Shown piece after piece: positions 4,801 through 62,994 of a stretch of DNA of 64,000 nucleotides. Positions within the stretch are counted from its first letter, which is position 1. The number at the start of each line of letters is the position of its first letter. The stretch comes from Candidatus Aldehydirespirator sp. (GTDB lineage Bacteria; Actinomycetota; Acidimicrobiia; Acidimicrobiales; Aldehydirespiratoraceae), in contig OZ241894.1 of the NCBI GenBank assembly GCA_965203575.1, positions 2,380,322-2,444,321 of the forward strand. The letters run 5' to 3'. The position numbers and the translations under genes are program-made. Below the pieces are notes generated by a model, which was not told the DNA's origin, made no database searches, and was given only the letters and a program-made list of their open reading frames with translations.

Positions 4801-5446
4801 TGGCCGTGGTCGTGGTCGTCGTGTGGGTGTGCTCCACCGGCTCAGCGGTCACATACCTGTAACAGGAGATGATCCGGCCGTAGCCGCCGCGGGTGTACCC
4901 GTCCGGGCACCGCGCCGTCGTGCGCGTCCTCCACGCGTCGACGGTCCTGTAGCAGCCCCTTCCGATCTTGCGGTACCCCGCCGAGCACACATAGCGGGTC
5001 TCAGTCACCGTGCGGGTGCGGCCCCTCACCCAACACCCCGACCCCGAAGAAACCGCCGTGCTGCAATAGCGGTGACCCCTGAAACTGCGCCAGAAGCCCT
5101 GCCGCACACACCCCGCCCGGGTCGCCAAATCGACGCACACCGTCTTGGTCGTGGTCACCTCGGTCGCGTCCACCCGCAGCGTGCGAGTGCACCTCGAACC
5201 CGACCGCACCCCGCCACAGACCCTCACAGTCTCAATGATCGGCACCCTGTACTGCTTCTTGCGGCAGCCCGAACCGCTCGGCGAAAAGCCCGCAGGGCAC
5301 CGCACATCGGCCGCCGCGGGCTCAGCGCCCGGCGCCAGACCCTCAGGAAGCCCCTCCGGCGGCGAGAACCCCGCCAAACCATACACCACCACCGACACCG
5401 CCAACCCCCACAACAGCGCCCGAACCCGCCCCAGCCGCGACATCAC
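1895..5446 (-). CDS. large (1183 aa) secreted multidomain protein: Cys-rich N-region, Thr/Pro linkers, four Ig-like repeats, PPC-like domain, C-terminal domain of unknown function
   Basis: N-terminal signal-like segment (LLWGLAVSVVVYGLAG). Four ~90-aa repeats sharing G(P/A)G(A/T)M..FTV.P..A.C.A.R.SG....V........V.V......G...VRV.C. Segment YTLTLTTASDVTIELTPDD...GTYTIET resembles pre-peptidase C-terminal (PPC) domains. C-terminal region has a ...PGVGPWQLD... motif faintly like lytic transglycosylases (weak). Confidence 0.75.
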   Translation of the reverse strand: MMSRLGRVRALLWGLAVSVVVYGLAGFSPPEGLPEGLAPGAEPAAADVRCPAGFSPSGSGCRKKQYRVPIIETVRVCGGVRSGSRCTRTLRVDATEVTTTKTVCVDLATRAGCVRQGFWRSFRGHRYCSTAVSSGSGCWVRGRTRTVTETRYVCSAGYRKIGRGCYRTVDAWRTRTTARCPDGYTRGGYGRIISCYRYVTAEPVEHTHTTTTTTATTTTARPTTTARPTTTARPTTTARPTTTARPTTTVDVGGFGGRSRSGAGTMLGAFTVSPVDASCSASRVSGISAALSWFDGAGRLRILSVDTGEAAGSVKVRVACSRAGYRPRSADAVFSAVAVGGLDGASRDGPGAMSEVFTVAPGAASCSARRLSGVPAGVSVSGGSGPWRVLRVTTTGTGTARVRVTCRLGSSASATASYTARPYVRVNGLTGASGAGTATSAFTVEPDSATCAARRTSGPAATVSVAGTSRIGRSVTVQAAAAGTVVVRVVCSARGWADTTRTAAFTVTARCAAGEHAHNPDYGSGAHPPGVQNTQAHRDAHGGGTAPTGCSGDHPPPPTTTTTTTPVPPTTTTPPTTTTTPPTTTTPPTTTRPPTTTTTTPVVPERVLIEGYVGGSRTGPGAMTATFTVTPADASCRALLLGRTASRVSTSPRTGAERTVTVTAAAVGKIRVYVYCTHPRLKRSVEGATFTVRDPAARDQTQQTCAEPLAVTASGVPRRGQWTTACTSNQRGNKSTPYYAMSYTLTLTTASDVTIELTPDDNTDAAYLDLLHPPGSTAESLQAIGANPRISVENLPVGTYTIETTHREEQTTGGFTLTVTAAQTTTTTSTQTRFKYTDAMVDGVLSASSGAVAAARAGTDDDLRMCVSRDTDPVTANMLASYMLAIPLRELRRENPSLMDLSRWDSVFTNTKSKHLFSRGTQKGEPKAHWSPGVGPWQLDIWDPVLTRNHAERANVAIVAPEIADHLLPGLCGKQSLKDTLGTWLACAGRKASGEDPERDYCAPKAADIYDEENDSLWIQRMPGSDVDGGVQDRKCRWGTDGGEFDCYWYDIANAEGDPTDYHPDGRIATGEDSKGRKWADKCREKLGGGDGDCYDITPLPSGFVSFTDTDGTKYAAFPAADIGETGTGTGYDATLIRGVPANQYARDSTLGDGHGWFEGTVDNRVLYIKTCAAPGPCRWHRV
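3647..3790. repeat. imperfect 18/21-nt periodic repeats encoding a (P)PTTTT linker
   Basis: Reiterated ggcgtggtcgtggtgggc-like units on the + strand; minus-strand translation is TTTTTTPVPPTTTTPPTTTTTPPTTTTPPTTTRPPTTTTTTP. Confidence 0.7.
4701..4790. repeat. five perfect tandem copies of an 18-bp unit (encodes ARPTTT x5)
   Basis: gtcgtcgtgggccgcgcc repeated exactly at 4701, 4719, 4737, 4755 and 4773; lies inside the 1895..5446 CDS. Confidence 0.95.
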
Positions 5447-6032
5447 GACTCACCAACCAACACAACCGCCGCTCGAACCGGACCCCCCGGCCCGCGGGGG
5501 GGGGGCGGACGCGGAGGCGGCGGCAGCCCACAGCCGCCGCCTCCCGGACGTGACGCTCGGTCCGGTTGTCGCCCGTATGCGGCCCGCCTGCGCTACCAGG
5601 ATCGCGCGCCTGCCGGACCGACGTGACGTTCACAGCGGCGTGCACCAGGCTCAACCTATACACCTTTCGCCTCAGCCACACGATCAACATATCATGCACA
5701 GTTCGACAAGTTCGACTGAATGAGACTATGAATGATCCTCTGAAACCGACGGACGCGGCAACCCACAGCCAGCACCGCCCCGCGCGACGCCGACGAGCGA
5801 CAACCACTCCGCCAAGCGTCCGGGTTGTCGGTACGCCCAAAGTGCGCGAGTATGGGTCGGGGTTTCCTTCCTTGACCGAGGCCGCGTGGGCCTCCGGTCA
5901 CCTAGCGGGGCGGTGGTGCGCACTACCGGGGGGAGGAGGTGCGCATCACCGCCACCGCCCGCGCTGCCCGCGCCTGCGTCGGCGCCCGCCGAGCAAGGTG
6001 ACCGCGCAGGGCCCGCCCGTGACCGGTGCCGA

Positions 6033-48395: not shown

Positions 48396-49322
48396 ATGGA
48401 CAGGTTGTGGACGGACGACGACGAATCGAATCCAGTTGACGATTGGGTCGAGAGGGTCACGTCCATAGGGCGGTTCAAGAGCAGGGACAAGGACAAGCGC
48501 GCCCCCTACAAGCCGTTGTTGCTGCTGTGGATGATCGGTCGCTTGGCTGGGGGGCTGCCGGGCCGTGTGTCGTTCCGGGAGGCGGAGGAGGACCTGCAGC
48601 GGCTGCTGAACAAGCACCCTGTGGGCAAGTCGAAGCCGAAGGTCGAGAATCCGTTCGTGTACCTCGCAAGCGACCCGAATCTCTGGCGGGTTGAGGATTC
48701 GGGCGGCGGCAATGTGGCCCGCATGGAGCGGCGCAAGAAGATGAGCCCGCCTTTCCTGCGGGCGGAGGCGACCGGCGCGCTCGCGCCCGAGTTCGAGCTG
48801 GCGCTGCGAGATCCGAACGTGAGATCCCGTGTCGTGAACGCCCTGCTTCGGATGGAGTTCCCCGATTCGCAGCACGAGGAAGTCCTGCAGGATGTGAACC
48901 TCGGTCATGTGGTGGCGGTCGCGCCGGCACCCCGTGATCCGAAGTTCAGGATCACGGTGCTGCGGGCCTACGAGGATCGATGCTCGTTCTGCGGATACGA
49001 CCTGCGTCTCGGCGGCTCGCCGGTGGGCATCGATGCCGCCCATGTGCAGATGCACAGAAAGGGAGGGCCCAACCGCATCGAGAACGGGATCGCGCTCTGC
49101 GTGCAGCATCACCGGCTGTTCGACGCGGGCGCGCTCGGCCTGAGCCAGGATCATCGGATCCTGGTGAGCGAGGACTTGAATCTGAGCGACCATGATTCGG
49201 CCGCTCGCATCAAGAGCCTCGTCGGCGAGCGGATGCGCACACCCCTGCGCCGGTACAGCCTCCCGGCCTCCGAGCACATCGACTGGCACACCAAGAACCT
49301 CTTCAAACACCCCGCCCGCTAG
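48396..49322 (+). CDS. HNH endonuclease with N-terminal SBD-like (phosphorothioate-DNA-binding type) domain
   Basis: C-terminal CSFCGYDLRL...IDAAHVQMHRKGGPNRIENGIALCVQHHRLFDAGAL (HNH). N-terminal RAPYKPLLLLWMIGRL..., ENPFVYLASDPNLWRVED and ALLRMEFPDSQHEEVLQDVNL resemble the family I recall as ScoMcrA-type sulfur-binding-domain HNH enzymes. Confidence 0.65.
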   Translation: MDRLWTDDDESNPVDDWVERVTSIGRFKSRDKDKRAPYKPLLLLWMIGRLAGGLPGRVSFREAEEDLQRLLNKHPVGKSKPKVENPFVYLASDPNLWRVEDSGGGNVARMERRKKMSPPFLRAEATGALAPEFELALRDPNVRSRVVNALLRMEFPDSQHEEVLQDVNLGHVVAVAPAPRDPKFRITVLRAYEDRCSFCGYDLRLGGSPVGIDAAHVQMHRKGGPNRIENGIALCVQHHRLFDAGALGLSQDHRILVSEDLNLSDHDSAARIKSLVGERMRTPLRRYSLPASEHIDWHTKNLFKHPAR

Positions 49323-49400: not shown

Positions 49401-49646
49401 TCAGGGCCGGTAGACGCGTCCGCGAGGCCCGACTCGCAGCACGACGACTACTCCGTCGTCGCGCTGCCGGTGGATGATTCGGAAGTCGCCGAACCTCACT
49501 GAACGGCAGCCGCTCAGCCTTCCCTGAAGACGCTTGCCCATGGAGGGGTCCGTGTCGAGGGAGGCGATGATCTCCAGCGCCCTCGAGCGGTCGGCAGCCG
49601 TGAGCCGGTCCAGGCCCTTCTGCGCCGGTCTAGAGAGGAGGGGCAT
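49401..49646 (-). CDS. RelE/ParE-family toxin
   Basis: ...DPSMGKRLQGRLSGCRSVRFGDFRIIHRQRDDGVVVVLRVGPRGRVY matches the RelE/ParE C-terminal consensus (RvGdyRiiY...v.vl.vghR..vY). Confidence 0.75.
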   Translation of the reverse strand: MPLLSRPAQKGLDRLTAADRSRALEIIASLDTDPSMGKRLQGRLSGCRSVRFGDFRIIHRQRDDGVVVVLRVGPRGRVYRP

Positions 49647-49989
49647 AGCGATCGAGAGGAAGCAAGTCGTCGTTCGCTATGTTGTTGTCGGCTTCTTCGA
49701 GGTCGGCCATCGCTTCCGGGTCGTTGAGCAGGGCCAGGGTCTCGAGGGCGCCCTCGGGATCGTTCCAGTCCAGTTCGGGATGCTGTGATCGCAGTCGGCG
49801 CGCGGAAGCAGCGTCCAGATCCTTCTCGCCCAGCACCGCCGGACGGTCCGCGAGGGTCGCCTCGGGCCTAGTGGCGCCGATGGGTCCCGAGTGCGCCGGT
49901 TGGTCCACGTCCCGATCGTAACTCAGGACCGCGACGGCACCCGCCACTCCGCCACCGCAGAGACGGCCGCGCACTACCAGTTTCGTCAA
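49630..49989 (-). CDS. putative Phd/YefM-like antitoxin (start uncertain)
   Basis: C-terminal ...ETLALLNDPEAMADLEEA... is typical of Phd/YefM antitoxins; overlaps the toxin start by 17 nt. The track start is a TTG overlapping the SNF2 stop; GTG 49908 is an alternative. The N-terminal half is atypical. Confidence 0.4.
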   Translation of the reverse strand: MTKLVVRGRLCGGGVAGAVAVLSYDRDVDQPAHSGPIGATRPEATLADRPAVLGEKDLDAASARRLRSQHPELDWNDPEGALETLALLNDPEAMADLEEADNNIANDDLLPLDRYAPPL

Positions 49990-51548
49990 GGAGCTAGGAG
50001 TTCACGAACTGCGTCAGGACGGTGCTGGAGGGCGTCGATGAGCTGGTCAAACGTCATCTCCTTGCGGTCCAGGAGAGGCTGAAGGCGGTCCTCGACGGTA
50101 TCGGCGCAAGTCAGGTAGTGAACGATGACCGGCTTGGTCTGGCCGATCCGCACCACGCGGTCGACGGCCTGCGAGTTGGTCGACGGGTTCCACCAGCGGT
50201 TGACGAAGATCACCCGGTTGGCCTCGGTGAGGGTGAGGCCCTCGCTGGCGACCCGCGTTGAGGCCAGCAGCACCCAGCAGTCGGGATGGGTCTTGAACCG
50301 CGCCACCGAACGCCTTCGTTGATCGAGCGGCTGCTCTCCGGTCAGCATGGCGGCGATGTTGCCATGGGCGGCGACTAGCCGTTTCTGTAGGTGCCGCAGC
50401 GGGTCGAGCATGTACGAGAACACGACCGTCTTGCACCCGTCGGCCATCGCGGACTCGGCGAGCTCGACAGCACGGTCGAGCTTGGCACTCGCGCCCGTCT
50501 CGGGATCGATGTCGCAGATTGATCGCAGCCGGTTGAACAGGGCCAGGTACCCCTCCTCGGAGCGACGGCCCATGGACGACAGGGCGGCGCTGTAGGCACT
50601 CCGCTGCGCGCCGTGAAGTCGGACCTTCTCGACGTGCTCGGTCGCTGCTGGCAGTTCCGGCAGAACGAGATCCTTGGTGCGGCGCAGCAGGTAGGGCCGG
50701 ACCCGGGAGCGCAGCGCGTCGATTCCGTGACGGTGGTCATCGATGGCGAATCGGCGGGGTTCGAGCAGTGACAGCAGGCAGGCAAGATCCTGCGAGTCGC
50801 GCTCCACGGGGGTACCGGTGAGGGCCCACACCCGCGGTGCGGCTATCCGGCGCATCGCCTGGTGAGCGAGCGACTCAGCCTTGCGGAGGCGGTGTGCCTC
50901 GTCGGCGACGATCAGGTCGGGCGGCTGGCCTGCAAGATCGTCCCAGAGCCCGCGCAGGTCTTCGTAGCTGGCTAGAAGGACATGTGCTCGGGCCACGGCG
51001 CCGCGCCAGTGCGCCGGGGTGAAGGTGCGGTTGGTGAACTCCAACCGTTGAGCGATGAGTTCGGGCGCCCACTTGTCGACTTCAGCTAGCCAGTTCGCAA
51101 GCAGTGTCCGGGGTGCGATGACGAGACACGACTCGATGCGGCCGTATCGGTACAGTCGCCTAATCGCAGCGATCACCTGAATGGTCTTGCCCAGCCCCAT
51201 GTCGTCCGCGAGGATCGCCTTGCGATTCTGCAGCAGCCAAGCAACGCCTTTGCGCTGGAACGGGTAGAGATCGTCGCGCACACCCGGCGGCAACAGGAGC
51301 GGCAGAACCCGGCGTAGCCTGCGATCACAGTTGCGCTCATACCCAGGCCGCGGATCGAACGCCAAGGCCAGAGAGTCGGGCGCTACTGCTCGTAGGCGGC
51401 GCGCCAAGCCGCCGTCCCACCTGACCAGTGACTCCGCCGCTTTGTGCAGTCGAGCGCTGCCGGACGATGCCTCAGGGGAGCACGCGATCTCGAACCGATT
51501 GACGTCTTCGGAGGCCGTTACCGATGATGAGATCTGTCGCGAGTCCAT
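49986..51548 (-). CDS. SNF2-family helicase/ATPase
   Basis: DMGLGKTIQ (motif I), DEAHRLRK (II), LTGTPVERD (III), and ...NPSTNSQAVDRVVRIGQTKPV (VI, QxxDRxxRIGQ). Confidence 0.9.
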   Translation of the reverse strand: MDSRQISSSVTASEDVNRFEIACSPEASSGSARLHKAAESLVRWDGGLARRLRAVAPDSLALAFDPRPGYERNCDRRLRRVLPLLLPPGVRDDLYPFQRKGVAWLLQNRKAILADDMGLGKTIQVIAAIRRLYRYGRIESCLVIAPRTLLANWLAEVDKWAPELIAQRLEFTNRTFTPAHWRGAVARAHVLLASYEDLRGLWDDLAGQPPDLIVADEAHRLRKAESLAHQAMRRIAAPRVWALTGTPVERDSQDLACLLSLLEPRRFAIDDHRHGIDALRSRVRPYLLRRTKDLVLPELPAATEHVEKVRLHGAQRSAYSAALSSMGRRSEEGYLALFNRLRSICDIDPETGASAKLDRAVELAESAMADGCKTVVFSYMLDPLRHLQKRLVAAHGNIAAMLTGEQPLDQRRRSVARFKTHPDCWVLLASTRVASEGLTLTEANRVIFVNRWWNPSTNSQAVDRVVRIGQTKPVIVHYLTCADTVEDRLQPLLDRKEMTFDQLIDALQHRPDAVRELLAP

Positions 51549-51601
51549 GGCATCAACTCGGCGGGCAGGATTGGGGTCCGAATGGCACCGTTGCGCCTCG
51601 C

Positions 51602-53017
51602 TCAGCCAACCACTCCCGCTTCGACTTCAAGCCACAATGAATCGGCCTCGGCTGCTGCGGAAGCCGGAAGATAGGCGTACCAGAGGCTGCGCAGCCCACC
51701 CGTTCCGCTGATCTCCTCCTCGGTCAACGGGTCGACGCCGCATTGCCAGCGAACAATGCGCTCCATCAACTGCATGCGCTTCTTGCGTTCCTCGTTGACG
51801 ATTCGCCAGGACGCGGAGGGATCATCTGTCGGTACCAACATGATGTACTTCCATGGTGGGAGGTGGGCATCCCAACTGATCTGGCTCAGCGGATAGAGCG
51901 CCTCGCAGGCTTGCTCGACTGTCATGGGTTCTCGTGACATCGTGTCAGGCATGACTGAGTCGTCAAGTAGGGCCCTTGCCAGATCCGCCACCATTTGTTG
52001 AACCACCGGCCAGAAGAGTACGCAGTCCTGTGATGCTTCGGGGTCGTCTCGCTGCTCAGGAGGCCGGTGATCTCGCATCTGTCTGCCATCTTCACTAATG
52101 ATTGGCAGGGTTTCAATCAGAGCCTCCCAGTACGTGAATACCTCTACCTCTAAAGCATCGATCTCCTCATCCGAGGGACGGAACTTCTTGTAGACTTGCA
52201 GCTGCTCCTGGTTGGCGCCCCAACCCGTGTTGCGTCGTTGTCTGCTCGCCAGCAGTCGAACATTGAGTTCGTACAGAACCTCTAGCGTAGTGAAGAACGG
52301 GTGACTGATTCCAAGGTTCTTGCCAGGCTCCATCCGTATGCGGCCACTGTCGAACTCCGATTCACTGAAGCTGCTGAAGAATGGGTGTTGGGAAACGAGT
52401 CGTCGAGTGACGATAGCTAAGGCGTCGTCTTCATCCATGATGATGTTGTCGTATTGTGACATCGCCTTTGCATATCGATTCAAATGGCCAAACAGTCGCC
52501 TATATCGCACAATGAAATTCGAGGTCTCCTCGAGCTGCTGAGGAGTCACAATGAGTACGCTCACTTCCTCATCACGAAAATGCTCAGGTGGCCTGAAGTC
52601 GGTCGTGTGGTCCAGGAGACTGCGGATTGCTGCGAGACGGTGCTGCCCGTCGAGCGCGTAGTAGTTCTCCGTGCCGTCGAAGGTGAGCACGCCGAAGGCG
52701 TCAGTCAACCGTCCTTTTCCTAGCAACTCGAACTTCGGGTCTTCCTCAAGGCTGACTGGGTGCCACTTGGGGTCGCCTCCGAGAGCTGCGACGACGATGG
52801 CCCCAAAGAACCGGTCGTCATGTCGGGCAAGGTATCTGGCGATCTCGCCCGTGGCGCGGTTCTTGTTGAGGTTGCGCTGAATGGCATCTGACAATTGGGA
52901 GGCACCGTGGATCTCTTCCGCGTAGCGGATGTTCTGAGCGATCTCTACCATCGACATTCGTACGAGATAGTATTGCCAGCGCCCCATTCGGGCTTGCACG
53001 GCGGGATAGATTTGCAC
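51602..53017 (-). CDS. DGQHR-domain (DndB-like / ParB-fold) protein
   Basis: ...NYYALDGQHRLAAIRSL... DGQHR signature preceded by QRNLNKNRATGEIARYL and FFGAIVVA. GTG start with aggtg RBS. Markedly lower GC than neighbours. Confidence 0.8.
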   Translation of the reverse strand: MQIYPAVQARMGRWQYYLVRMSMVEIAQNIRYAEEIHGASQLSDAIQRNLNKNRATGEIARYLARHDDRFFGAIVVAALGGDPKWHPVSLEEDPKFELLGKGRLTDAFGVLTFDGTENYYALDGQHRLAAIRSLLDHTTDFRPPEHFRDEEVSVLIVTPQQLEETSNFIVRYRRLFGHLNRYAKAMSQYDNIIMDEDDALAIVTRRLVSQHPFFSSFSESEFDSGRIRMEPGKNLGISHPFFTTLEVLYELNVRLLASRQRRNTGWGANQEQLQVYKKFRPSDEEIDALEVEVFTYWEALIETLPIISEDGRQMRDHRPPEQRDDPEASQDCVLFWPVVQQMVADLARALLDDSVMPDTMSREPMTVEQACEALYPLSQISWDAHLPPWKYIMLVPTDDPSASWRIVNEERKKRMQLMERIVRWQCGVDPLTEEEISGTGGLRSLWYAYLPASAAAEADSLWLEVEAGVVG

Positions 53018-53037
53018 GATGCACCTGCTTTCACAAT

Positions 53038-53514
53038 CTAGGCGGGGACTGCCTGCTTGATTCGTCCTGATACCGGTTGTGCTGATGGGATCACTCGGTT
53101 CGCGGGTGGGTCCAACACAGTCACGAGAATGTGCTCTGTTTGGTTGAGCCAGTTACTCGACCTCGTCGTGGCATTCTCAGGTACTCGGGTGTATGAGAAG
53201 CGCAGGCGTCCGAATATCGAGCGGAACTGCTTGATACGTTCGTTTTGTGGGTTCGGCGCAGCGTGTTGCCAGAAGCGCCGACGTAGGTTCTTGGTTTGGC
53301 CGACGTACAACACACCCGAGACTTCACTCGGAAGCGAGTAGATGTCTGACAGGATCGTTGGAGAAACATGAAGTATGTAGATTCCTCTTGCTTGTGGCAC
53401 CGCTGAGTCGAACAGCGTGTCCAACCAGGTCGAGTGCCAGTCGGTGCCTTCCAGCGCAGAGATGACGCGGCTCCAAGCGTCGGCGCTTAGGGATAGCCCT
53501 CTAGATCCTGTCAT
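53038..53514 (-). CDS. small GIY-YIG-like nuclease-domain protein
   Basis: GIYILHV...VLYVGQTKNLRRRFWQH...NQTEHIL...N: GIY, YVG, Arg, Glu and Asn elements in the order of GIY-YIG domains, though the GIY-to-YVG spacing is longer than usual. The start overlaps the upstream stop by 14 nt. Confidence 0.55.
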   Translation of the reverse strand: MTGSRGLSLSADAWSRVISALEGTDWHSTWLDTLFDSAVPQARGIYILHVSPTILSDIYSLPSEVSGVLYVGQTKNLRRRFWQHAAPNPQNERIKQFRSIFGRLRFSYTRVPENATTRSSNWLNQTEHILVTVLDPPANRVIPSAQPVSGRIKQAVPA

Positions 53515-56071
53515 GTCCCTGGATGCTCACTGATTTGGGTGCAGGTTCACCGGATTCCTTGAATCGAGCCGCCAGCGGGGCGGCGATGGTGATGCCGCCG
53601 ATGGTGGGAGGCAGTTGCTGGAAGGAAGTAGGCGTCCCAGCGTGGAGTGGCGAGCCTTTGGTCGGTAGCGGGTTCTCGGGTCTCATCGCCAGACCGAAGG
53701 TGACTTCCGAGGGATTGTGAATGGTGAGGCTCACACTGGCACCTTCATTGATTCCGAGTGCTCGCAGCGCCGGGCCCAGACGACCGATCTCGGGCCCGTG
53801 CATCGAGGTCTTGCGCCAGATGACTGAGATGTCCTGACAGCCGTGCGGTGAGCGGACGGCAGCTGTGGTCTTGGTTCCGAAGTAGCAACCCAGCGCGGCC
53901 GCGACGGACGGTGGAACGCTGTGAAGGCTGTAGCCGTCGAGGTGCCGGTCGTACACTGAGAACGACCAGTACGGGTCGTCGTTGTCGTCGCGTCCGTCGA
54001 TCACGTCGTCGAGGCGGCCGACATCGATTCCGGTGCCGTCAGCCTCACTCACCCAGCCGTGCTCCACTCGGAACGCGGGCGTGTTCAAGTACGCCCAGAC
54101 GCTTCCCTCGTTCACTCCGAAGAGGCGGGGAAGCTCGTCAAGAACGCGGTTGAGGCGGGTTGATCCTCCGTCCTCGTTGATGCGCTGCACGATCTCGGCG
54201 GGAATGCCCTCGTAGATGTCGTCTATCCACTCCCGCAGGCCCCAGCGGTGCTTGTCAGCTCGGGCGACTGAGGGGATGTTCGACAGTGCGCCGGCCACCT
54301 GTCGTTCGGACAGGCTGGACTCCTGGGCGAGTTCTGCCTTGGTGGCGGGCGAGCCGATCTTGAGCAGAGCAGCCTTGACCCGGGCTCGAACCGTAGCTCG
54401 GGGCGCGACGTGATCGAACAGGCAGTGCCATCCGATCCAGCGTGTGAGCAGCTCTGAGTGGTCGTGCCACTCGGGGGCGAGCGCACTCCGTAGCCGATCG
54501 GTGGAAATCAGGCCAGCATCGTCTACGAGCTCGTCGACAGCGCCCTTCAGTGCCTCAGCAGCCTCTACAGCCGCAGGGCTGAGGCAGAGTCCCTCGCGGC
54601 ACTCGTAGCCGAGCATGGCGCCTAGCATTCTGCGAGCCACGAGAAGGGCTTGCTGCGCCACCTCGTCTTCGGGCTTAGGAAGTAGCTCAGTCGTCGTAGT
54701 CTCGGTCTCGAGAACTGTCGTCACTTCACCGAGACGCTGATAAGCGATCAATTCGAGAATCCTGAGGGCCGGACCCGCGGCATCTTCCAGTTGCTCCTGA
54801 GCCTTGCGGGCGATCTGACGAATTCGCTCTCGTGACAGTCCTACGCGCTCTGCGAGTTCCGCGAGCGTCATCGGCGAGTCCGATGCAACACGTTCGAGCA
54901 CAGCTAGCCGCTCAATATCGGTCATCTGCGCCAGCGTTGCGCTGACCATCTCGACCGCTCGATCAGTGACCGTGGGGGCATCGATCCCCAGCGGCAGACC
55001 ATCCAGCCCAGCGTCCGCTTCAGCTGCCGCGATCAGATCCGATAGATCCAGCCGGAGCAGATCCCCGAAGGTCGTGGCCCCTCGGAATTCAGCGGCAGCG
55101 GCAGCGATCAGCTCGACCGCGTCGGAATGCAGGACCGCTTCGGGAATTGTTCGGTGCTGAAACGTGACCTCAGCGTGCGCTGAGGCTTCGGCGGTCTGGG
55201 CCGTGCCGACTGCAGCCGCCGGCCATTCGAAGTTCTCGGCTGCCTCGAGTACACACATCAGGTCAAGTAGCGACGCGATCCCAAAGCTGGGCAGACGCAT
55301 CAACTGCCCGAGCGTTGCCTCGGAGAGCGCCCCGCTAGTCAAGCCGGCGCGAAGACAATTGCGTGTCCGGTTCGCAAGCGGCAGGCGGTCAAGTTCGTCG
55401 ACGTCCAAGTGGGGCGGGAGTACCTTGAGACCCTCGGGCGGCAGCATTCTCATGGCCATGTCACGCAGCAACCAGGCCGACACAGCCTGGACGGGCTCGT
55501 TGTAGTGCTCCCAGAAGCGTGCCAGGTCCCGAACATGCCGAGTCGCCGGGTAGGCGCTCGTGAACTCCCGCGGGAGCGTCTTGTGACCATGAGACACCAG
55601 ATACCAGCGCGGTAGAAGGGGGGTGGGCGGGCTGCCCCAAGGTGCTGGCGGGTCGCTGGATGCAATGGAGGGCAAGTCGTCCGCAGGAACGTCGAAATGC
55701 TGAGGCTCAGCGGTCGGCTCACGATTCCTTGAGGCCCCATTCAGCCGCAGCGCGACGCGTCGCCGGCCGGTGACGACTAGATCGACCGACTGTTCGGAGC
55801 AGGCCCCGATGTTCTTCAGAGGCTCGGCGATACTGAGTACGACCGTTCGTGGCGGATCGCCCTCTTCCAAGCAGACCGTCAGTTTGCGGCAACCCATAGG
55901 ATCCTCGACCGCGACGCGAGTGAGCGCGCCGGGCTTGCAGCCGAGTTGGGCGGCGACCTCCTTGGGGAAGGCGACCCGACGGTTGTCCTGAAGGAGGGCG
56001 TCGGTTACTCGGAACGTCCAGGCTGGATTGCCGTCGGTATCCCTCCGCGTTGATGCGACCGCGCTTCTCAT
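53501..56071 (-). CDS. 856-aa multi-HTH protein: related N- and C-terminal ~90-aa domains, RpoA-alphaCTD-like HhH, sigma-70 region-4-like HTH, winged-helix segment
   Basis: ATG 56071 forms an ATGA overlap with the sspD-like stop. NRTRNCLRAGLTSGALSEATLGQLMRLPSFGIASLLDL (alpha-CTD-like). MTLAELAERVGLSRERIRQIARKAQEQL (sigma r4-like). Terminal domains share W(T/S)FxVxD...(F/V)PxxVAAxLGC..G..T..AV..P.GC. The track's extra 121 N-terminal codons overlap sspD out of frame and are rejected. Confidence 0.7.
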   Translation of the reverse strand: MRSAVASTRRDTDGNPAWTFRVTDALLQDNRRVAFPKEVAAQLGCKPGALTRVAVEDPMGCRKLTVCLEEGDPPRTVVLSIAEPLKNIGACSEQSVDLVVTGRRRVALRLNGASRNREPTAEPQHFDVPADDLPSIASSDPPAPWGSPPTPLLPRWYLVSHGHKTLPREFTSAYPATRHVRDLARFWEHYNEPVQAVSAWLLRDMAMRMLPPEGLKVLPPHLDVDELDRLPLANRTRNCLRAGLTSGALSEATLGQLMRLPSFGIASLLDLMCVLEAAENFEWPAAAVGTAQTAEASAHAEVTFQHRTIPEAVLHSDAVELIAAAAAEFRGATTFGDLLRLDLSDLIAAAEADAGLDGLPLGIDAPTVTDRAVEMVSATLAQMTDIERLAVLERVASDSPMTLAELAERVGLSRERIRQIARKAQEQLEDAAGPALRILELIAYQRLGEVTTVLETETTTTELLPKPEDEVAQQALLVARRMLGAMLGYECREGLCLSPAAVEAAEALKGAVDELVDDAGLISTDRLRSALAPEWHDHSELLTRWIGWHCLFDHVAPRATVRARVKAALLKIGSPATKAELAQESSLSERQVAGALSNIPSVARADKHRWGLREWIDDIYEGIPAEIVQRINEDGGSTRLNRVLDELPRLFGVNEGSVWAYLNTPAFRVEHGWVSEADGTGIDVGRLDDVIDGRDDNDDPYWSFSVYDRHLDGYSLHSVPPSVAAALGCYFGTKTTAAVRSPHGCQDISVIWRKTSMHGPEIGRLGPALRALGINEGASVSLTIHNPSEVTFGLAMRPENPLPTKGSPLHAGTPTSFQQLPPTIGGITIAAPLAARFKESGEPAPKSVSIQGHDRI

Positions 56072-56925
56072 AGGGCGCAGACTGTGCAGGGTTCGGTGTC
56101 GTCTTCTTCGTTGAAGGCGTCGGCTAGGGCTTCGATCAGGGGGAGGTTGGCCCTGGTCTTGCTGGCGCGGGCCATGGCGGTCTCGTGGCGTTCGAGGATC
56201 TGGTCGCGGCGGTTGCGGAGCTGGACAAGGGTCTCGCCGCCGGACCAGGTGTACTGGCGGCCTCGCATGGCTCGGTCGCCGAAGTCGGCGTCGCCGTCGA
56301 CGCCGGCGTCCTGGAGGACCTTCTGCTCGATGGCCACCGCCCGCTCGAACAGGTCCGGGTGGCGCTCGGCGAGGCCGATCCACTCGGCCTTGCGCTGGTA
56401 GAAGCAGAAATAGCAGCCCGAGCGGGTCCGCCACTCGTAGTAGGCGGGCAGGCCGATCCCGGCATCGTCTAGGAGCCTCAGCACCTTCGCATGGTCGATG
56501 CCGTCCTCCACGAACGGGAAGCGGGTCTTGATGTTGGGCTTGGTGGAGACGTAGCCCTTGCGGTTCGACTCGTCCGCCCGGATCGCCACGTACGACACCG
56601 CCGGGGCGTCACCGATCCACTCCTCGATCGGCTTGATCTTCATGTTCTTGGTGCACCACCGCATCTGCGGCGACGGCAGCGCCCCCCTGAACACCTCGAA
56701 CCAGTGGTCGAAGCCCCGCGACGCGTTGAGCCTGACGATCGGCCGGCCCAGGATCACCTCCAGGCGGGTCAAGTACTCGTAGGTCTCGGGCAGCTCCGCA
56801 CCGGTGTCGCAGAAGAAGTACTCCATCTCCGGCACGCGGTCCCGCATATACACCGCCAAGGCGCTGGAGTCCTTCCCGCCCGAGATCCCGCAGATGTGGC
56901 GCACCGGCGCCTCCGGCTCACCCAC
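56068..56925 (-). CDS. sspD: PP-loop ATP pyrophosphatase, PAPS-reductase family (SspD/DndC-like)
   Basis: ICGISGGKDSSAL (SGGxDS PP-loop); 285 aa (short, SspD-like rather than full DndC); 8-nt overlap with the upstream ATPase gene. Confidence 0.75.
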   Translation of the reverse strand: MGEPEAPVRHICGISGGKDSSALAVYMRDRVPEMEYFFCDTGAELPETYEYLTRLEVILGRPIVRLNASRGFDHWFEVFRGALPSPQMRWCTKNMKIKPIEEWIGDAPAVSYVAIRADESNRKGYVSTKPNIKTRFPFVEDGIDHAKVLRLLDDAGIGLPAYYEWRTRSGCYFCFYQRKAEWIGLAERHPDLFERAVAIEQKVLQDAGVDGDADFGDRAMRGRQYTWSGGETLVQLRNRRDQILERHETAMARASKTRANLPLIEALADAFNEEDDTEPCTVCAL

Positions 56926-59900
56926 CGGCCACCCTCCTTCGCGCCGCGCCGACCGGGCTCTCGTCAGCGGGAGCCGAGCTGAGGTCGCTGGCTCGGGACT
57001 CGGGCAGCAGGCGCTCGCTCAGCAGCGCCAGGAGGCTCTGGTGGGCGGTCAGGGCCGAGCCCGTGATCTGTGCCAGATCGGCCAGCACCTCTTCCAGCGC
57101 GTCCTCCAGCTCGGGTCGGCGCCTGCCGTCGATGCCCACCAGGCGGATGTACTCGCTTCCGTCGGAGCGGGTGACGGTCACGCGCAGCGCGTCGAACGGG
57201 CCCCTGCCGTCGGCACGGCGCTCCGCGTGCAGGGCGACCAGCCGATGGAACGCCGCCAGTCTCTCGGGCAGCTCGCGGTCGAAGCGCAGCCGGTCGTCGT
57301 CGGTCCATTCCGCAGGGGCCTTGCGGGCCACGACAGTGGCGACCGCCGCCATCCAGGCCGCGTCCGACTCGACGCCGTCGTTGGCCAGGGCGAGCACGAA
57401 CGCCCTTACCTCGGGGTCGAGGACCTCGTCGCCGAGCAGAGCGGCCTCGCCCGTCACCGGCATCCGGCTGCCCGCTCCGCAAGCGTCGAGCAGCGACTCC
57501 ATCAGACCGTCCAAGAGTCGATCCAGGCTCGACTCCAGCTCGGCCAGAGCGGCTGCGACCGCCCTCGCGAATTCGGCTGCGAACTCACAACCGGTCGCGT
57601 CCGCAGCCACGGGGCGGAAGCCCAGCGCTCGGGGCAGGTCGGTGAACAGCAACTCGTCGGGCTCGACTGCTTCGGTCAGAGCGTCCCGCACGGCTCGCGA
57701 CTCGGCGCTCACGCTGCTCGTGCGGCGTGCGTAGTTCTCGAGTCGGCTGATCCGCAGGACAAGGCTGGTGACCACGGCGAGAACATTCGCCACTCGTCGT
57801 TTGCCCCCTCCGATCCGGTGCTCAGCGCGTGTGCGAGCCAGTGCAGGCTGCGAGTGATCCCCGGCGTCCACCGAGAGTCCCAACTGCTCGGTGAGAGCCT
57901 CCACGACCATGAGCCGCCCGCCGCTGGCGTTGGCGAAGTGCTTGACATCGAAGTGGCCCGGATTGCGCACCATCCGCTCGGAGACCTCGGGTGACAGAAC
58001 CGGCTTGAACGTTCCGTGCTCGTAGATGGCGACCTCGTCGCGGAAGGCCAGCAGACCCGCAGTGACGAAGACGGGTACCACCGCAGCCTTCATGCCGACA
58101 GGGGGCGAACGCAGCGCGGCGTGGACGCTGTTCAGGTTGATCCGCCGGTCGGTCGAGCGCCGGAACTCGCCCTCGAGGATCTCCCAAGCGGGCTTGAGCG
58201 TCTCATCGGCGGGCGGTCCGAAGGACATGGTGCCGCCGCGGGGATCGACGGCGTGAAGCCCGGTCCGCAGCAGGAACGCTCGATACATAGCCGTCTCCGG
58301 GCCGTATCCCTCGAATCCCAGATCGGCGATGCCGGACTCGCCGCGTTCGATCATGGCTTCCAGGAGCAGGCGGCGCGACTTGGCTCCCTGGGAGGTGAGT
58401 TCGCTCCGGTTGAGCATCTCATTGCCAACCACGGGGGTGGACGGGTAGGCGATGTCCGCGGCCGATGACAGGGCGGCGCTGCCCCGCCCGCCGGCCAGTT
58501 CGGTTGGGCCTGCGCCGTCCTCGCCCCCCAGCAGGATCCAACGGCAGGATTCGGCGCCGAACGTGTCGGCCAGGGCCTGATCGAAGGCGACTCGGGTCTG
58601 CGCCAGCCGCTCGCCCAACTCGCGCCGCGCCACCTGGTCCTCGGCTACCGCGGGGTCGTCGAGCACCGAAGCCACTGCGGCGATCTCCCGGGCGGCCGCG
58701 TCGAGCGCCGACACATCCCGGGGCAGCGCCGCCACCACCGGCTTGGACCCGTCCACGGATTGGGCGACGGTCGGCGGGCGGCCCGAAGGGTCGACAACGA
58801 GGAGCGCCTCGCCGTCGTAGGGGGAGAACGGCTCGGGAGCCGTGGCCTGCTCGCCCGCTTCGGCATAACGCCGGCGGAAGACGCGCAACACATCGTGCTC
58901 CGCGCTGTGGCGCGCCGCCACGACCGGCTCCGGCCGGTCGGTCTCCGCCACCATCCCAGCGAGCGGCCTGCGCTGCATTCTCTGACGGGCGGAGTCGAGG
59001 AGCAGACCGACGTCGACGTCGCTGCCCTGCCATATCCGGTACTCGTCGGCGAAGTCCCGGAAAGTGACGATCCCCATGCTCTCCAGATCGGCGAGAGCGG
59101 CGTGGGCGCCCCTGCCGGACATCTCCAGGACCTGCCGGGACGCCCGGATGGTCCCCGTCGTGGACACCAGGTTCAACAGAGCGACGGACTTGGCCGTGCG
59201 GGCCTGCGACGGCGTGAGGCCATGGGTGTCGCGCAGCCGGGTGGCGACCTCACTCCAGCGGCTCGACTGGCGCGCCGAGGAGATGCTGAGGGCGCCGCTC
59301 GCTACGAAGTAGTCGTACACCGCTTCGAGGCCAAGGGACGGCAGCGGCCCCCTCGCCGGAAGGTTCGCAGCGCTGAGGAACGACAGGACGCCCGCAGGGT
59401 GCGGGCCGGCGAGGAAGGAGAAGAGCGTTCGTTCGTGCTGGCCGTAGCGGCTGCACAATTCGGGCAGCACGAGCGCCGCCAGCGGGTGAAGCGGGTAGCA
59501 GGCGGCCAGGACGGTCGGGTCGGCGAGGTCCGCGATGCCCAAGGCACGCATCTTCCGGGCGTGCGAGCGCGCCCAGCGGTCGATGCGGGTCCGGAGGTGT
59601 TCGTCGCGGACGTCGAACACGGTGCCGATGAGGGATCGGGTCTGCCCGGCCGAGTCCACGAAGGACACGTCCTCGAAACGGCCCTGCACCTTGGCCCACT
59701 CACGGCGCTGAGCGCTGTCGGCGCTGGCCAGGCAGTCGTCGAGGGACACGTGCTGCAGAGTGACCACGAAGATCGGCAGTCCCGATCCCTGGCCGGCCTC
59801 CGCGAGACGTTGCAGCAGATACGGATCCGCGCCGTGTCCGTCACGAACGGCTTCTAGGTTCTTGCCGAACTCGTCGATGATCAGCAGCAGCGGCGCGTCC

Positions 59901-60477
59901 TCGGCCAGCCGGCGCGCGATATCAACCAGGATCGAGGGTGAAGGGCCGCCTCCCCGGATGTCGTCGTGAGCGGTGTCCTCCAGGGAGCGGATCAGCTCTG
60001 GAGCGTCACCGAGGCAATCCGCAGGGGGGGGGTCTGGTCGTCGCGGAGAACGGCGGATTGCAGGGCGCGCAGCACTGTGCGGGCCAGCGGCTCGCGCTCC
60101 GCGGTGACGAGCGCGCGGGTAAAGCCGCGGTTCAGGGTTCCGTGGCGCCGGTGGGCCCTCCGGATCAGGTCGCCCGATGCGTCCGACGCGTCGTCGATGA
60201 TCCCGAGGGCTGAGCGCCGGAGCTGCGAGCGGCCGCCGAAGGCCGCGTCCAGCAGCAGGGCGAGCGACGACTTACCCGATCCGTACGGACCGGTGAGCGA
60301 CCAGGCACCGCCCGCGGGTCCCGTCGCTGCGGTAGTTGCGATGCGCTCGACCACATCGAGGCCTCGGGCGGTGAGGACGTATCCGTCCAGCGGTTCGGGC
60401 CGGGCGAGGTCGCGCTCGAGGTTCGCCGAGCGGGCGAACCGGCCGCTGACCGAGATGGCGTCACCAAGGGTCGGCAT
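56918..60477 (-). pseudogene. sspC: ~1187-aa P-loop NTPase (SspC-like) split by a frameshift in a C9 (G9 on + strand) tract
   Basis: 5' part 60477..59992 carries GPYGSGKSS (Walker A). The frame shifts at 60024-60032. By hand translation the downstream frame is open from at least 60059 and reads ...PPPADCLGDAPELIRSLEDTAHDDIRGGGPSPSILVDIARRLAEDAPLLLIIDEFGKNLE... (Walker B), joining the 949-aa ORF. One extra C would fuse both parts. Confidence 0.75.
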
Positions 60478-61532
60478 CAGCCGGCTCCCGCCAGGGCGTG
60501 CAGGCTCCGGAGGCTGTCTGTGGAGTTGCGGCCTGCGCCGAGGTCCTCGAGAAGGTTGTCGTCCACCGCCAGATCCCCGATGCAGCCGGCGCACACTTCC
60601 GTCGCCGACGAGCCGTAGTAGTCGTTCAGGACCGCCGTCGCGATCTCTGCCGGGTCGCCCGAGCAGGCGAAGTGCCACGCCCCGGCCGGGGATGCGAGGC
60701 TCAGCCCTTCCGTTCGATCCACGGCAGGCTTGACCGCGGCCAGGAGCTCCGTCTCGTTCAGTTTGAACGCTCGGCCGGGCGCTCCGGGCTCGTGGGCCAG
60801 GCGGCTGAGCGTGACGGTCCTGCCGCCGCTGCCGGTGCGTTCGATGTAGTCGAGCACGGCGTGGACGGCAACCTCGGACGGCAGGGTCGGCTTGGGTCCC
60901 AGCGTGAAGCGAGGCAGTCCCGTTGCGGGAGACCGCCGCAGCAGGTTCAGTTCCCGCAGCGGGCAGTCCAGCAGGTCGTCCACGCTGATGCGGCGGGAAT
61001 GCTCCGACGGCGCATAGGTGCGCAGCAGGGCGCCGACGTCCTTCCTGACCGACGACTCGTGCGGCGCGGCCCAGTCCGCGGAGGCCTCCAGCTGCGTGGA
61101 GACCGCCCCGGCGAGGTCGGTGTCGCTGAACTCGACCGCGTTGAACTCGTTGAACGCGAGCCACCAGACCGGCAGACGCGAGGGCGGCGCCAGCAGCAGC
61201 CAGTGCAACAGCCAGAGCGTTCCGGGATCCTCCATGTAGGGGTCCCAGCCCTGCTCACCGAAGAGCGCGTGGCCGCGGCGGGTGGGCACGAACTGTGGCG
61301 CCCTGCGGTTCGGGGAGTGGGGATCCTCAGTGATGACCTTGGCGGCGAGGCCCCAGAAGCGGATGGCGCGCACCATGTTCTTGCCCACGCCTATTACCAC
61401 CGGCGCGTCCGGCCGCCCGAACGTGTAAGGATCGGCGGCTGCGACCGCATAGGCCTTGCGGAACCAGCCGAAGCGGGGGTGGAAGGTCTCGTGCCGGGCG
61501 AATGAGCGAACGGCAGCGTCCGGCAACCTCAT
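60477..61532 (-). CDS. sspB: DUF4007-like protein (SspB-like)
   Basis: N-terminal MRLPDAAVRSFARHETFHPRFGWFRKAY matches the HETF..R.GW..K signature I recall for DUF4007/SspB. ATG 61532 has a gggag RBS 8 nt upstream (GTG 61571 alternative). Its stop shares a base with the sspC-like ATG. Confidence 0.65.
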   Translation of the reverse strand: MRLPDAAVRSFARHETFHPRFGWFRKAYAVAAADPYTFGRPDAPVVIGVGKNMVRAIRFWGLAAKVITEDPHSPNRRAPQFVPTRRGHALFGEQGWDPYMEDPGTLWLLHWLLLAPPSRLPVWWLAFNEFNAVEFSDTDLAGAVSTQLEASADWAAPHESSVRKDVGALLRTYAPSEHSRRISVDDLLDCPLRELNLLRRSPATGLPRFTLGPKPTLPSEVAVHAVLDYIERTGSGGRTVTLSRLAHEPGAPGRAFKLNETELLAAVKPAVDRTEGLSLASPAGAWHFACSGDPAEIATAVLNDYYGSSATEVCAGCIGDLAVDDNLLEDLGAGRNSTDSLRSLHALAGAG

Positions 61533-61680
61533 TCGCCGGCTCCCGCATTCACGTCGATGAAGATACCGCACCCGTGTGACAGCGACCTGGGTCCTGCAAG
61601 CGAGTCCGTCAGACGGTCTGCCCTACACCCAGTTGGGCATCGGCATCACTGGCGCGACGCGGCGGGCTTGGTTCTGGCGA

Positions 61681-62829
61681 TCAGGTCAGGGCGCGGACAC
61701 GCTTGACGGCAGCGGTGGCGCTCTCTACTGCGGCGTCGACATCAGCCTCGGTGGTGAAGCGGCCGAGACTGAAGCGCACCGACTCGAAGGCGGTCTCATG
61801 GGACCGGCCCATGGCCACGAGAACCTCCGACGGCTCGATCGATCCTGCGCTGCAGGCACTGCCGATGGACACTGCGACAGGGTCCATGTTGGCCATGACC
61901 GCCTCGGCGTCGGCGCCCACGAAGCACAGATTGGCTGTGTTGGGCAGTCGCCTCGACGGGTCGCCGTTCTGCAGCACGCGGGGGAGGCTGGCCTGCAGTT
62001 CGGACACGAGGCGGTCGCGCAGCGCTCCTACAGTCTCGGACTCCCGTTCGCGCTCGTCAGCGGCTATACGGGCGGCGGTACCAAGGCCGACGATGCCAGC
62101 CACGTTGAGCGACCCCGAGCGCAGGCCTCGCTCGTGGCCGCCGCCGTGGAGCAGGGCTTCGAGTTGCCTGAGGCTGTGCCGGGTGCCGACCAATGCGCCC
62201 ACCCCGCCCGGGCCGCAGATCTTGTGCCCGCTCAGCGACACCAGGTCCACGCCCAGCGCCTCCATGTCGAACGGCAGGCGTCCCGCCATCTGGGTGGCGT
62301 CACAGTGGAACAGCGCGCCCGCAGCGTGTACCCGCTCCGCGATCTCACCCGCCGGGTTCAGAACGCCGGTCTCACTGTTGGCTGCCATGACCGACACAAG
62401 CACAACATCGTCGCCGACCATCTCTTCCACGGTGGCCGGCTCGACGAAGCCACCTGCGGTCACCTCGATCACATCCAGCTTCACCAGGCCATAGTCGGCG
62501 AGCCACCTCGCCGTACCTGCCACCGAAGCGTGCTCTACCGCGGAGACGAGCATCCTTTGCCTGTTTTGGGGGGCGGCCTCAAGGGCACCCTGCAGAGCCA
62601 GGTTGTTGGCCTCGGTCGCTCCCGAAGTGAACACGACCCCCGATGCGCGCCCGCCCACCAGAGCCGCTACGTGTTCACGGGCATCGTCCACCGCGGCCGC
62701 CTGTCTGCGTCCGAAGCGATGGACTGACGAGGCGTTGCCGACCGAGTCGGTCAGGATCGGCATCATCGCCTCCGCCACCCGCGGGTCGAGCGGAGACGAT
62801 GCGTTGTAGTCGAGATAGACCTCCCTCAC
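61681..62829 (-). CDS. sspA: class V cysteine desulfurase (SspA/DndA/IscS-like)
   Basis: SLSGHKICGP (PLP Lys), GSACSAGS (persulfide Cys) and HGGGHERGLRSG. GTG start with ggaggtggc RBS. Confidence 0.8.
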   Translation of the reverse strand: MREVYLDYNASSPLDPRVAEAMMPILTDSVGNASSVHRFGRRQAAAVDDAREHVAALVGGRASGVVFTSGATEANNLALQGALEAAPQNRQRMLVSAVEHASVAGTARWLADYGLVKLDVIEVTAGGFVEPATVEEMVGDDVVLVSVMAANSETGVLNPAGEIAERVHAAGALFHCDATQMAGRLPFDMEALGVDLVSLSGHKICGPGGVGALVGTRHSLRQLEALLHGGGHERGLRSGSLNVAGIVGLGTAARIAADERERESETVGALRDRLVSELQASLPRVLQNGDPSRRLPNTANLCFVGADAEAVMANMDPVAVSIGSACSAGSIEPSEVLVAMGRSHETAFESVRFSLGRFTTEADVDAAVESATAAVKRVRALT

Positions 62830-62994
62830 GCCACCTCCGGTGCTGTTGCTGTCACTCGCGGGCCTCGCCGACGTTAGCGCTGTTCAGCGGAGCCGGTGCT
62901 GCATAGCCGGTCGTCGGCCGTACCATGCGGTCGTCGCGGTCGGACGGGAGCTCCGGCCGAGCGACCCATCCGCGAGACAAGAGGTGGTGACCTG

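Follow-up and report, generated by a model that had tools for sequence, protein, structure and literature searches.

A putative phosphorothioation defence operon with a probable switch in sspC and an uncharacterised partner module in Candidatus Aldehydirespirator sp.

In the described systems closest to the one reported here, the phosphorothioation (PT) of DNA by an Ssp or a Dnd writer is coupled to partners that differ in their need for the mark: SspE, which PMC10853773 regards as the counterpart of DndB in Ssp systems, does no harm when PT is absent, unlike SspFGH, which is then toxic (PMC8092258), and PbeABCD likewise does no harm (PMC6459918). For about 84% of sspBCD clusters, no restriction partner is known (PMC8092258). 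The present work concerns a minus-strand gene array in a stretch of 64,000 nucleotides from Candidatus Aldehydirespirator sp. (contig OZ241894.1, positions 2,380,322 to 2,444,321), referred to as the window, which has a G+C content of ~70% and whose own numbering is used throughout. The array comprises the writer genes sspA, sspB, sspC and sspD, followed by genes for an 856-aa DNA-binding protein (P5), a GIY-YIG nuclease, a DGQHR protein and an SNF2 helicase. With a probability that we put at roughly 0.6, it forms a single Ssp-type PT defence operon in which a tract in sspC acts as a switch, the GIY-YIG/DGQHR/SNF2 trio is the effector set and P5 is a scaffold. The system is probably of a known kind, PT-based restriction-modification, with an uncharacterised but widely conserved partner module, a rare putative scaffold of sponge symbionts and a probable repeat-driven switch of the writer.

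An Ssp writer and how its partner compares with described ones

As they stand, three of the writer genes agree with the PADLOC Ssp models over their full length, and so does sspC once its reading frame is repaired. The first, sspA (61681–62829, minus strand), encodes a 382-aa cysteine desulfurase with the motifs SLSGHK and GSACSAG (PADLOC SspA, 1.1e-132, full length; Pfam Aminotran_5, 247.7 bits). It is followed on the same strand by sspB (60477–61532), a 351-aa DUF4007 protein carrying FARHETFHPRFGWFRKAY (PADLOC SspB, 2.6e-99; Pfam DUF4007, 263.4 bits), whose open reading frame (ORF) could be extended to a GTG at 61571. The writer ATPase gene sspC (56918–60477, minus strand) is split as sequenced; its repaired 1186-aa product aligns to positions 2–1104 of the 1104 in the PADLOC SspC profile (3.7e-298). 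Last comes sspD (56068–56925, minus strand), a 285-aa PP-loop protein resembling PAPS reductases (ISGGKDSSAL; PADLOC SspD, 9.7e-110; Pfam PAPS_reduct). The DndC and DndD models score marginally, and PADLOC detected no DndC, DndD or DndE in the window. Judged by these profiles, the four-gene writer is an Ssp module and not a Dnd one, which upholds on both counts a sequence-only reading made earlier of the same DNA.

The genes are closely packed. The sspB stop and the sspC start share 1 nt, sspC and sspD overlap by 8 nt, sspD and P5 overlap at an ATGA, and P5 runs 14 nt into the GIY-YIG gene; gaps of only 20 nt and 53 nt separate the GIY-YIG gene from the DGQHR gene and the latter from SNF2. An ORF check agreed with the earlier reading on the ATGA, the 14-nt overlap and both gaps, as well as on the coordinates and motifs of all its minus-strand ORFs except sspC.

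With SspABCD-SspE (Xiong et al. 2020, summarised in PMC8092258 and PMC10853773) the window shares the four writer genes and their order, and a partner in which an NTPase-type domain of the ParB superfamily (DGQ[HQ]R) goes with a nuclease. The operon also seems to tolerate an OFF writer, as expected of a PT-activated effector. The partner itself is built differently. Its ParB-like component, a member of the DndB/DGQHR family, is encoded as a polypeptide of its own, whereas SspE fuses an N-terminal DUF262 (DGQQR) to a C-terminal DUF1524 nuclease; its nuclease is of the GIY-YIG and not of the HNH type; and an SNF2 motor and the 856-aa DNA-binding protein are added. Pfam found neither DUF262 nor DUF1524 in the four downstream proteins (PF03235 and PF07510, no match at E <= 0.01), in line with the earlier view that this is not an SspE-type partner. 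PADLOC, which includes SspE models, returned no SspE match among the window proteins tested.

The suggestion that the DGQHR protein and the helicase correspond to part of SspFGH does not hold, since published SspFGH contains neither DGQHR nor SNF2; its SspF has a Walker A motif and its SspH an FtsK/SpoIIIE-like C-terminus (PMC8092258). The window has no Walker-A SspF-like and no FtsK-like SspH protein: the downstream proteins include no FtsK or HerA domain, and the SNF2 helicase is the only P-loop protein among them. On that description and on domain content, the identity of these genes with SspFGH is rejected. What the two have in common is a multi-gene, motor-containing partner found with sspBCD, and the GIY-YIG + DGQHR pair adjoins an SspFGH-like set in Rhizobium. 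A partner that is toxic without PT, as SspFGH is, is a poor match for a naturally OFF writer, which the window would have.

A poly-C tract in sspC that differs between close relatives

The span of sspC measures 3560 nt, which is not divisible by 3, and therefore it is not a single ORF; the sequence-only reading had taken it for one gene of a ~1187-aa P-loop NTPase and missed the frameshift. Three-frame translation places the N-terminal 161 codons with GPYGSGKSS in one frame, which stops at 59992 (N-part 59992–60477), and the protein from LLLIIDEFGK onward in another (C-part 56918–60022). The junction on the coding strand reads CCAGA-C9-TGCGG, with the tract at 60024–60032 (minus strand; G9 on the plus strand), at about codon 149, and the addition of one C restores the 1186-aa protein.

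Across four copies of ~94–95% DNA identity, with near-identical flanks and from separate samples, the tract counts 9, 10, 10 and 11 C (L-numbers hereafter label the related loci compared with the window). The metagenome scaffold L068, 95% identical to the window in DNA, carries the same operon with sspC split and 11 C. The two copies with 10 C, L153 and L155 (~94% identity in sspC DNA, with DGQHR proteins at least 90% identical), were both called intact, at 1186 aa and 1180 aa respectively; the former is the very length predicted from the repaired window copy.

Between the window and L068, dN/dS is 0.215 for the N-part of sspC and 0.185 for the C-part at a dS of ~0.15, and no further stop occurs in 1034 codons. 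The other operon and partner genes give values of 0.07–0.23, and the other operon genes are intact. These substitution patterns indicate that sspC and all the partner genes are under purifying selection, and sspC does not appear to be a decaying pseudogene, because dN/dS stays at ~0.2 and extra stops are absent at a dS of ~0.15. The gene looks as a contingency gene does: the frame-shifting repeat lies inside it, differs in length between close relatives and sets the frame by its length, the flanks are conserved, and the two parts of the gene (0.215, 0.185) are otherwise kept by selection. Phase variation is the likeliest account of the break, with the window copy at its OFF length.

More distant orthologues retain poly-C at the same codon, with 9–13 C. 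The copies with 10 C (L008, L011) and 13 C (L026) are in frame, those with 12 C (L001, L005) and 9 C (L006) are out of frame, and in L004, where 13 C stand between differing flanks, the frame is not readable. Elsewhere sspC carries repeats of other kinds and positions: G14 near aa 54 (L034), G16 near aa 77 (L062), (GA)15 and (GA)17 near aa 95 (L015 and L018) and C18 near aa 543 (L057), with C14 in L041 and C15 in L009 in further lineages. At least five of the sites are independent. Frame-shifting repeats of at least 9 nt number 17 in 153 kb of sspC (17/44 loci) against 13 in the other 1,245 kb, a density ~11 times that of the flanking DNA (binomial p = 1e-9); the test left out contig ends and scaffold gaps, including the G-runs beside N's in L013 and a C35 at a contig end in L032. 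Those long runs look like assembly artefacts. Of the repeats outside sspC, several fall in other writer genes: sspB in L021 and L033 and, as a G18 in L037, the PP-loop gene that belongs to an alternative writer.

The arrangement resembles that of phase-variable restriction-modification systems (phasevarions; the pglX G-tract of Pgl/BREX), with an intragenic homopolymer in the modification arm and ON and OFF lengths between close relatives. It differs from them in that the modification is backbone sulfur instead of base methylation, the repeat lies in an ATPase instead of a methyltransferase, and the hosts are uncultured sponge symbionts. A literature search returned no report of phase-variable Dnd or Ssp systems.

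Several observations tell against a switch. Runs of nine G or C are unremarkable at 70% G+C; a model with independent, identically distributed bases expects ~5.6 per 64 kb, and 2 were observed. The enrichment p-value overstates independence because about ten of the tracts share descent. In 84 non-sponge loci gathered through the DGQHR protein, sspC repeats of this kind are absent, and switching is therefore not a general property of Ssp. The break could also be no switch at all, either because the tract was miscounted in assembly and the system is intact, or because a fixed inactivating mutation has left the operon to decay. A long-read metagenome-assembled genome (MAG) is suggested as the source of the window, the consensus of such assemblies can miscount long homopolymers, and the -1 length seen here could be an error of this type; base composition allows for one G/C run of 9, and many related sspC copies are out of frame in their MAG assemblies. 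Decay, however, is contradicted by the selection data and the intact neighbours described above. Error, in turn, leaves unexplained the 9/10/10/11 series from separate samples and the concentration in sspC, at five or more independent sites, of 9–18-nt tracts and (GA)15–17 repeats, which appear in contigs whose record names indicate different assembly pipelines. We regard this alternative, in both its forms, as distinctly unlikely.

Apart from the sspC tract, the window contains a single homopolymer of 9 nt or more, a G10 at 5496–5505, which precedes by about 50 nt a minus-strand ORF for 1183 aa (1895–5446). This ORF contains perfect 18-nt tandem repeats (4699–4798), has no Pfam match and may not be a real gene.

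The GIY-YIG/DGQHR/SNF2 trio and the P5 protein

The trio starts with a 158-aa GIY-YIG nuclease (53038–53514, minus strand; Pfam GIY-YIG, 26.9 bits against a gathering cutoff of 22.6). All the catalytic positions of such nucleases are present, namely the GIY and YIG tyrosines, the Arg, the His/Tyr, the Glu and the Asn: across 84 family members G44, Y46, Y70, G72, R80 and E127 are invariant, while H84 is kept in 92% and N139 in 98%. PADLOC gave no match to this protein. The next gene (51602–53017, minus strand) encodes the 471-aa DGQHR or DndB-like protein of the ParB superfamily, which has 836 relatives at E <= 1e-3 and a motif, D123-G-Q-H-R127, that is invariant in 30 homologues. It matches Pfam DndB (PF14072, 105.6 bits, cutoff 29.1) and TIGR03187 (96.9 bits, cutoff 58.85), and its PADLOC match is to DndB only (4.6e-14). 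In these respects it resembles DndB. It differs by scoring 56.3 bits on the DndB equivalog TIGR03233 against a cutoff of 328, by a distinct helical C-terminal half in its 471 aa, by its pairing with a GIY-YIG gene and by its linkage to ssp and not to dnd, dndCDE being absent. Structural matches to ParB-N and BrxU were weak (probability <= 0.41), and no fold was assigned from them.

The third member is a 520-aa SNF2-family helicase/translocase core (49986–51548, minus strand; Pfam SNF2-rel_dom 150.6 bits, Helicase_C 58.9 bits). It has the DDMGLGKT, DEAH and RIGQ motifs of SNF2 helicases and no fused nuclease, and PADLOC matched only the generic helicase cores of ZorD, DpdE and DrmD.

Three chromosomal or metagenomic loci at ~46% identity carry the trio beside sspB-C-D, usually in convergent orientation and preceded by an unannotated ~260-aa gene. 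A further 80 loci were retrieved from public metagenomes by DGQHR alignment alone, and the following counts cover all 84 loci, which come from marine, freshwater and soil metagenomes and from plasmids. Of the 71 loci with enough upstream sequence, 70 have the GIY-YIG gene immediately before the DGQHR gene, SNF2 is present in 41/42 with at least 1.7 kb downstream, and every one of the 15 loci with at least 3.5 kb on both sides contains SspD (15/15). This gene-order conservation marks the trio as a conserved partner of sspBCD.

Within the trio, more distant relatives set the first two genes apart. On plasmids a search returned distant relatives only, GIY-YIG + DGQHR pairs at 30–34% identity. On pROLI83 of Roseobacter litoralis the pair directly follows sspABCD without SNF2, and PLD/ATPase/helicase genes adjoin. 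On pTiK1_93 of Rhizobium sp. K1/93 (NZ_CP072148, 165474–182472; L160/L161) it stands upstream of genes for proteins of 589, 513 and 1809 aa, the last FtsK-like, a set that fits the description of SspFGH and is convergent to sspABCD; a GIY-YIG profile matched at E 1e-13 to 1e-18, and the SspFGH paper makes no mention of such a pair (PMC8092258). By gene content the pair is what stays the same, whereas the motor differs, because the pair occurs without SNF2 on the one plasmid and with the SspFGH-like set on the other.

Weighing against an effector role, the pair may for the same reason be an accessory. DndB of Dnd systems is described as a transcriptional regulator and not as an effector (PMC10853773), and the DGQHR protein is weakly characterised, with no significant structural match and no sequence relative among solved structures. 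One can accordingly picture the pair as a DndB-like accessory or regulator of PT level, PT placement or ssp transcription, with restriction left to SNF2 plus some other nuclease, to the sulfur-binding HNH enzyme described below, or to nothing. DndB/DGQHR is indeed the best family match of the DGQHR protein, DndB is reported as an ATP-modulated repressor of dnd genes (PMC10853773), and the pair adjoins differing effector sets on the two plasmids. A regulator, however, would have no need of an obligate companion whose GIY-YIG catalytic set is conserved in full, and the DGQHR protein falls well short of the DndB equivalog cutoff (56 vs 328 bits). SNF2 accompanies the close DGQHR subfamily almost without exception, and SspE, likewise a ParB-like NTPase, is a proven effector that co-occurs with SspFGH (PMC8092258). 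A purely regulatory pair is in our judgement unlikely, and we retain the trio as the candidate effector set.

In about half of the non-sponge loci a ~260-aa protein, here called X, precedes the GIY-YIG gene (L069 8761–9549, L070 8755–9546, L071 8364–9134). It has no Pfam or NCBIfam match, and a DGAKRL stretch in it is reminiscent of DGQHR. X was considered as a short form of P5, and BLASTP shows no similarity between them. In the window, G+C falls to 57% across 52000–54000, where the GIY-YIG and DGQHR genes lie, against ~70% elsewhere, and because of this drop the pair is suggested to have been acquired from a donor of lower G+C.

The 856-aa P5 (53501–56071, minus strand) was recognised by Pfam through Sigma70_r4 (33.8 bits, residues 380–428). 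An AlphaFold2 model (mean predicted local distance difference test score, pLDDT, 79.8) presents, in order, a B3-like barrel, a helical region, a sigma-70 region 4 helix-turn-helix (HTH), about four tandem winged helices and a second B3-like barrel. In Foldseek the first barrel matched the B3 domains of LEC2, FUS3 and VAL1 and the N-domain of LlaJI.R1 (probability 0.96–1.0), and the remaining parts matched sigma region 4 (TMt ~0.7) and the tandem winged helices of SelB/UFL1. The two barrels are paralogues of each other (E 2e-12). PADLOC produced a marginal HTH match only (mad1, 19.4 bits), and no catalytic domain is evident from Pfam, AlphaFold2 and Foldseek.

The P5 family comprises 77 clusters among 5.8 billion proteins, all unannotated. 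In species-representative genomes we found 67 loci, nearly all in MAGs whose record names point to sponge symbionts, with hosts in Acidimicrobiia, Gemmatimonadota, Binatia, Latescibacteria and Alpha- and Gammaproteobacteria; P5 is thus nearly confined to sponge-symbiont MAGs. In nearly all of these loci with enough flank P5 lies downstream of a sulfur-writer module, which is SspABCD in ~45. About 20 loci have an alternative writer, with a DndC-like PP-loop gene, a cysteine desulfurase, PDC-M33A/B-like genes and DUF6339, and many of them also encode a TIGR04096 methyltransferase-like gene. This writer may be another variant of sulfur modification. It is seen in proteobacterial MAGs (L037, L039, L044, L046, L050–L056, L058, L061, L064, L065 and L067), where its PP-loop protein measures ~450–480 aa and PbeA/PbeC-like genes follow P5. 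A separate locus without ssp genes, L024, has poly-G tracts of 10, 12 and 15 (at 6587, 8581 and 9690) at gene boundaries upstream of its 856-aa homologue.

What follows P5 also varies. The trio does so in 14 loci including the window (L001–L006, L008, L011, L026, L036, L057, L068 and, from metagenomes, L074 and L075), while in ~50 related loci the same slot is held by a PbeA-like gene (504 bits), a PbeC-like gene (151 bits) and a gene for ~165 aa. The likeness of the window to PbeABCD goes no further than this shared slot: PADLOC matched none of its proteins to the Pbe genes (PbeA, an HKD-SF2 helicase; PbeC, a CxC ABC ATPase), and Pbe is described with Dnd writers, not with Ssp (PMC6459918, PMC10853773). 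The four downstream genes, which the sequence-only reading had grouped as a quartet, therefore do not behave as one unit, since the trio joins sspBCD without P5 in many environments and P5 mostly precedes PbeA/PbeC-like genes. Judged only by its fold and position, P5 is most likely a scaffold that recognises DNA sequence and connects writers with effector cassettes that can be exchanged.

No specific PADLOC or NCBIfam model fits the four downstream proteins, searches with PADLOC at E <= 10 added nothing for P5, the GIY-YIG and DGQHR proteins or X, and a literature search returned no description of these proteins with Ssp. The earlier thought that they may form an undescribed Ssp effector variant is consistent with all of this. 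They might instead make up a defence system of their own, one that works independently of PT and shares with ssp no more than a defence island. Defence genes do cluster, toxin-antitoxin pairs and a type IV enzyme lie nearby, and SNF2 helicases are found in many unrelated systems (Zorya, Dpd, DISARM). The overlap of the window genes within one operon, the constant presence of SspD in fully flanked DGQHR loci of diverse origin and the recurrent place of P5 homologues behind a sulfur writer nevertheless make such independence very improbable.

Neighbouring genes, proposed mechanism and implications

Convergent to the operon, at 48396–49322 on the plus strand, lies a gene for a 308-aa type IV-like restriction endonuclease predicted to bind PT DNA (NCBIfam NF045808, 219.9 bits, cutoff 180). 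It combines a sulfur-binding domain (SBD) with an HNH domain: residues 14–169 align to the sulfur-binding domain of SprMcrA (7CC9, 7CCD; E 1e-7) and the HNH part to ScoMcrA (5ZMM). It shares these two domains with ScoMcrA/SprMcrA and differs in being shorter, in having no detected SRA domain and in being encoded beside a PT writer. An orthologue of ~70% identity holds the same position in L001, L002, L004, L005, L011, L068 and L157. Readers of PT DNA adjoining Dnd writers have been noted before (PMC10853773). An enzyme that cuts PT DNA beside a PT writer is a paradox unless their specificities differ or the writer is OFF.

Between this gene and SNF2 stand a ParE/RelE-type toxin (49401–49646, minus strand; PF05016, 40.9 bits) and, upstream of it, an antitoxin-like ORF (49630–49947, minus strand); the pair is also called in L068 and L157. 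Of the RelE-type pair proposed from sequence, the toxin is borne out by its profile, and the antitoxin-like ORF has no profile match. L068 additionally has a PemK/CcdA toxin-antitoxin pair (2237–2745) between a glyoxalase-family gene and sspA, which the window lacks at the corresponding place (~62840–62905). There are no tRNA genes in the window; among sampled long ORFs of its remainder no integrase or transposase was found, Pfam returning ordinary metabolic families or no match.

Mechanistically, and following the chemistry given in the literature, SspA would provide sulfur from cysteine, and SspB (a DNA-binding nickase), SspC (a ring ATPase) and SspD (a PP-loop enzyme) would introduce PT, expected on a single strand (for example CpsCA), into host DNA. 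Slippage would alter the length of the poly-C tract in sspC, 10 C yielding full-length SspC (ON) and the 9 C of the window a truncated product of 161 codons (OFF). Through polarity, the premature stop may also mean lower expression of sspD and of the partner genes, because each gene overlaps or abuts the preceding one. The downstream genes would be the PT-sensing restriction arm, as the sequence-only reading had it, with the trio working as a split SspE equipped with a motor: the DGQHR protein would read PT status using nucleoside triphosphate, SNF2 would translocate and GIY-YIG would nick foreign DNA. P5 would target the machinery and link the writer to the effector cassette, and the convergent SBD-HNH enzyme, from its domains, could cut PT-modified DNA. 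If an OFF writer is tolerated, this suggests that the effectors are either activated by PT, like SspE and PbeABCD, or silenced together with the writer.

The extension of this scheme to populations is tentative, and we place it somewhat short of even odds. In these symbionts PT itself would be phase-variable, with repeats in sspC (in other lineages in sspB or the PP-loop gene) toggling the whole defence operon. ON cells would mark their DNA and restrict unmarked invaders by means of the trio, OFF cells would stay unmarked, and their PT-dependent HNH enzyme could destroy phage carrying PT from ON siblings, which would amount to a two-sided barrier at the level of the population.

For the family, part of the partner gap of sspBCD may be filled by the GIY-YIG + DGQHR pair, either alone or accompanied by SNF2: it is widespread, closely linked to sspBCD and a candidate analogue of a split SspE. 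If the switch is real, phase-variable epigenetics would no longer be limited to methylation but would include a writer of backbone sulfur under the control of repeats. On the same condition, switching of sspC could help to account for some genomes in which PT is missing although the PT genes are complete (PMC12914056). For the symbionts, copies of sspC that appear pseudogenised in MAGs may be genes that are switched off and not dead.

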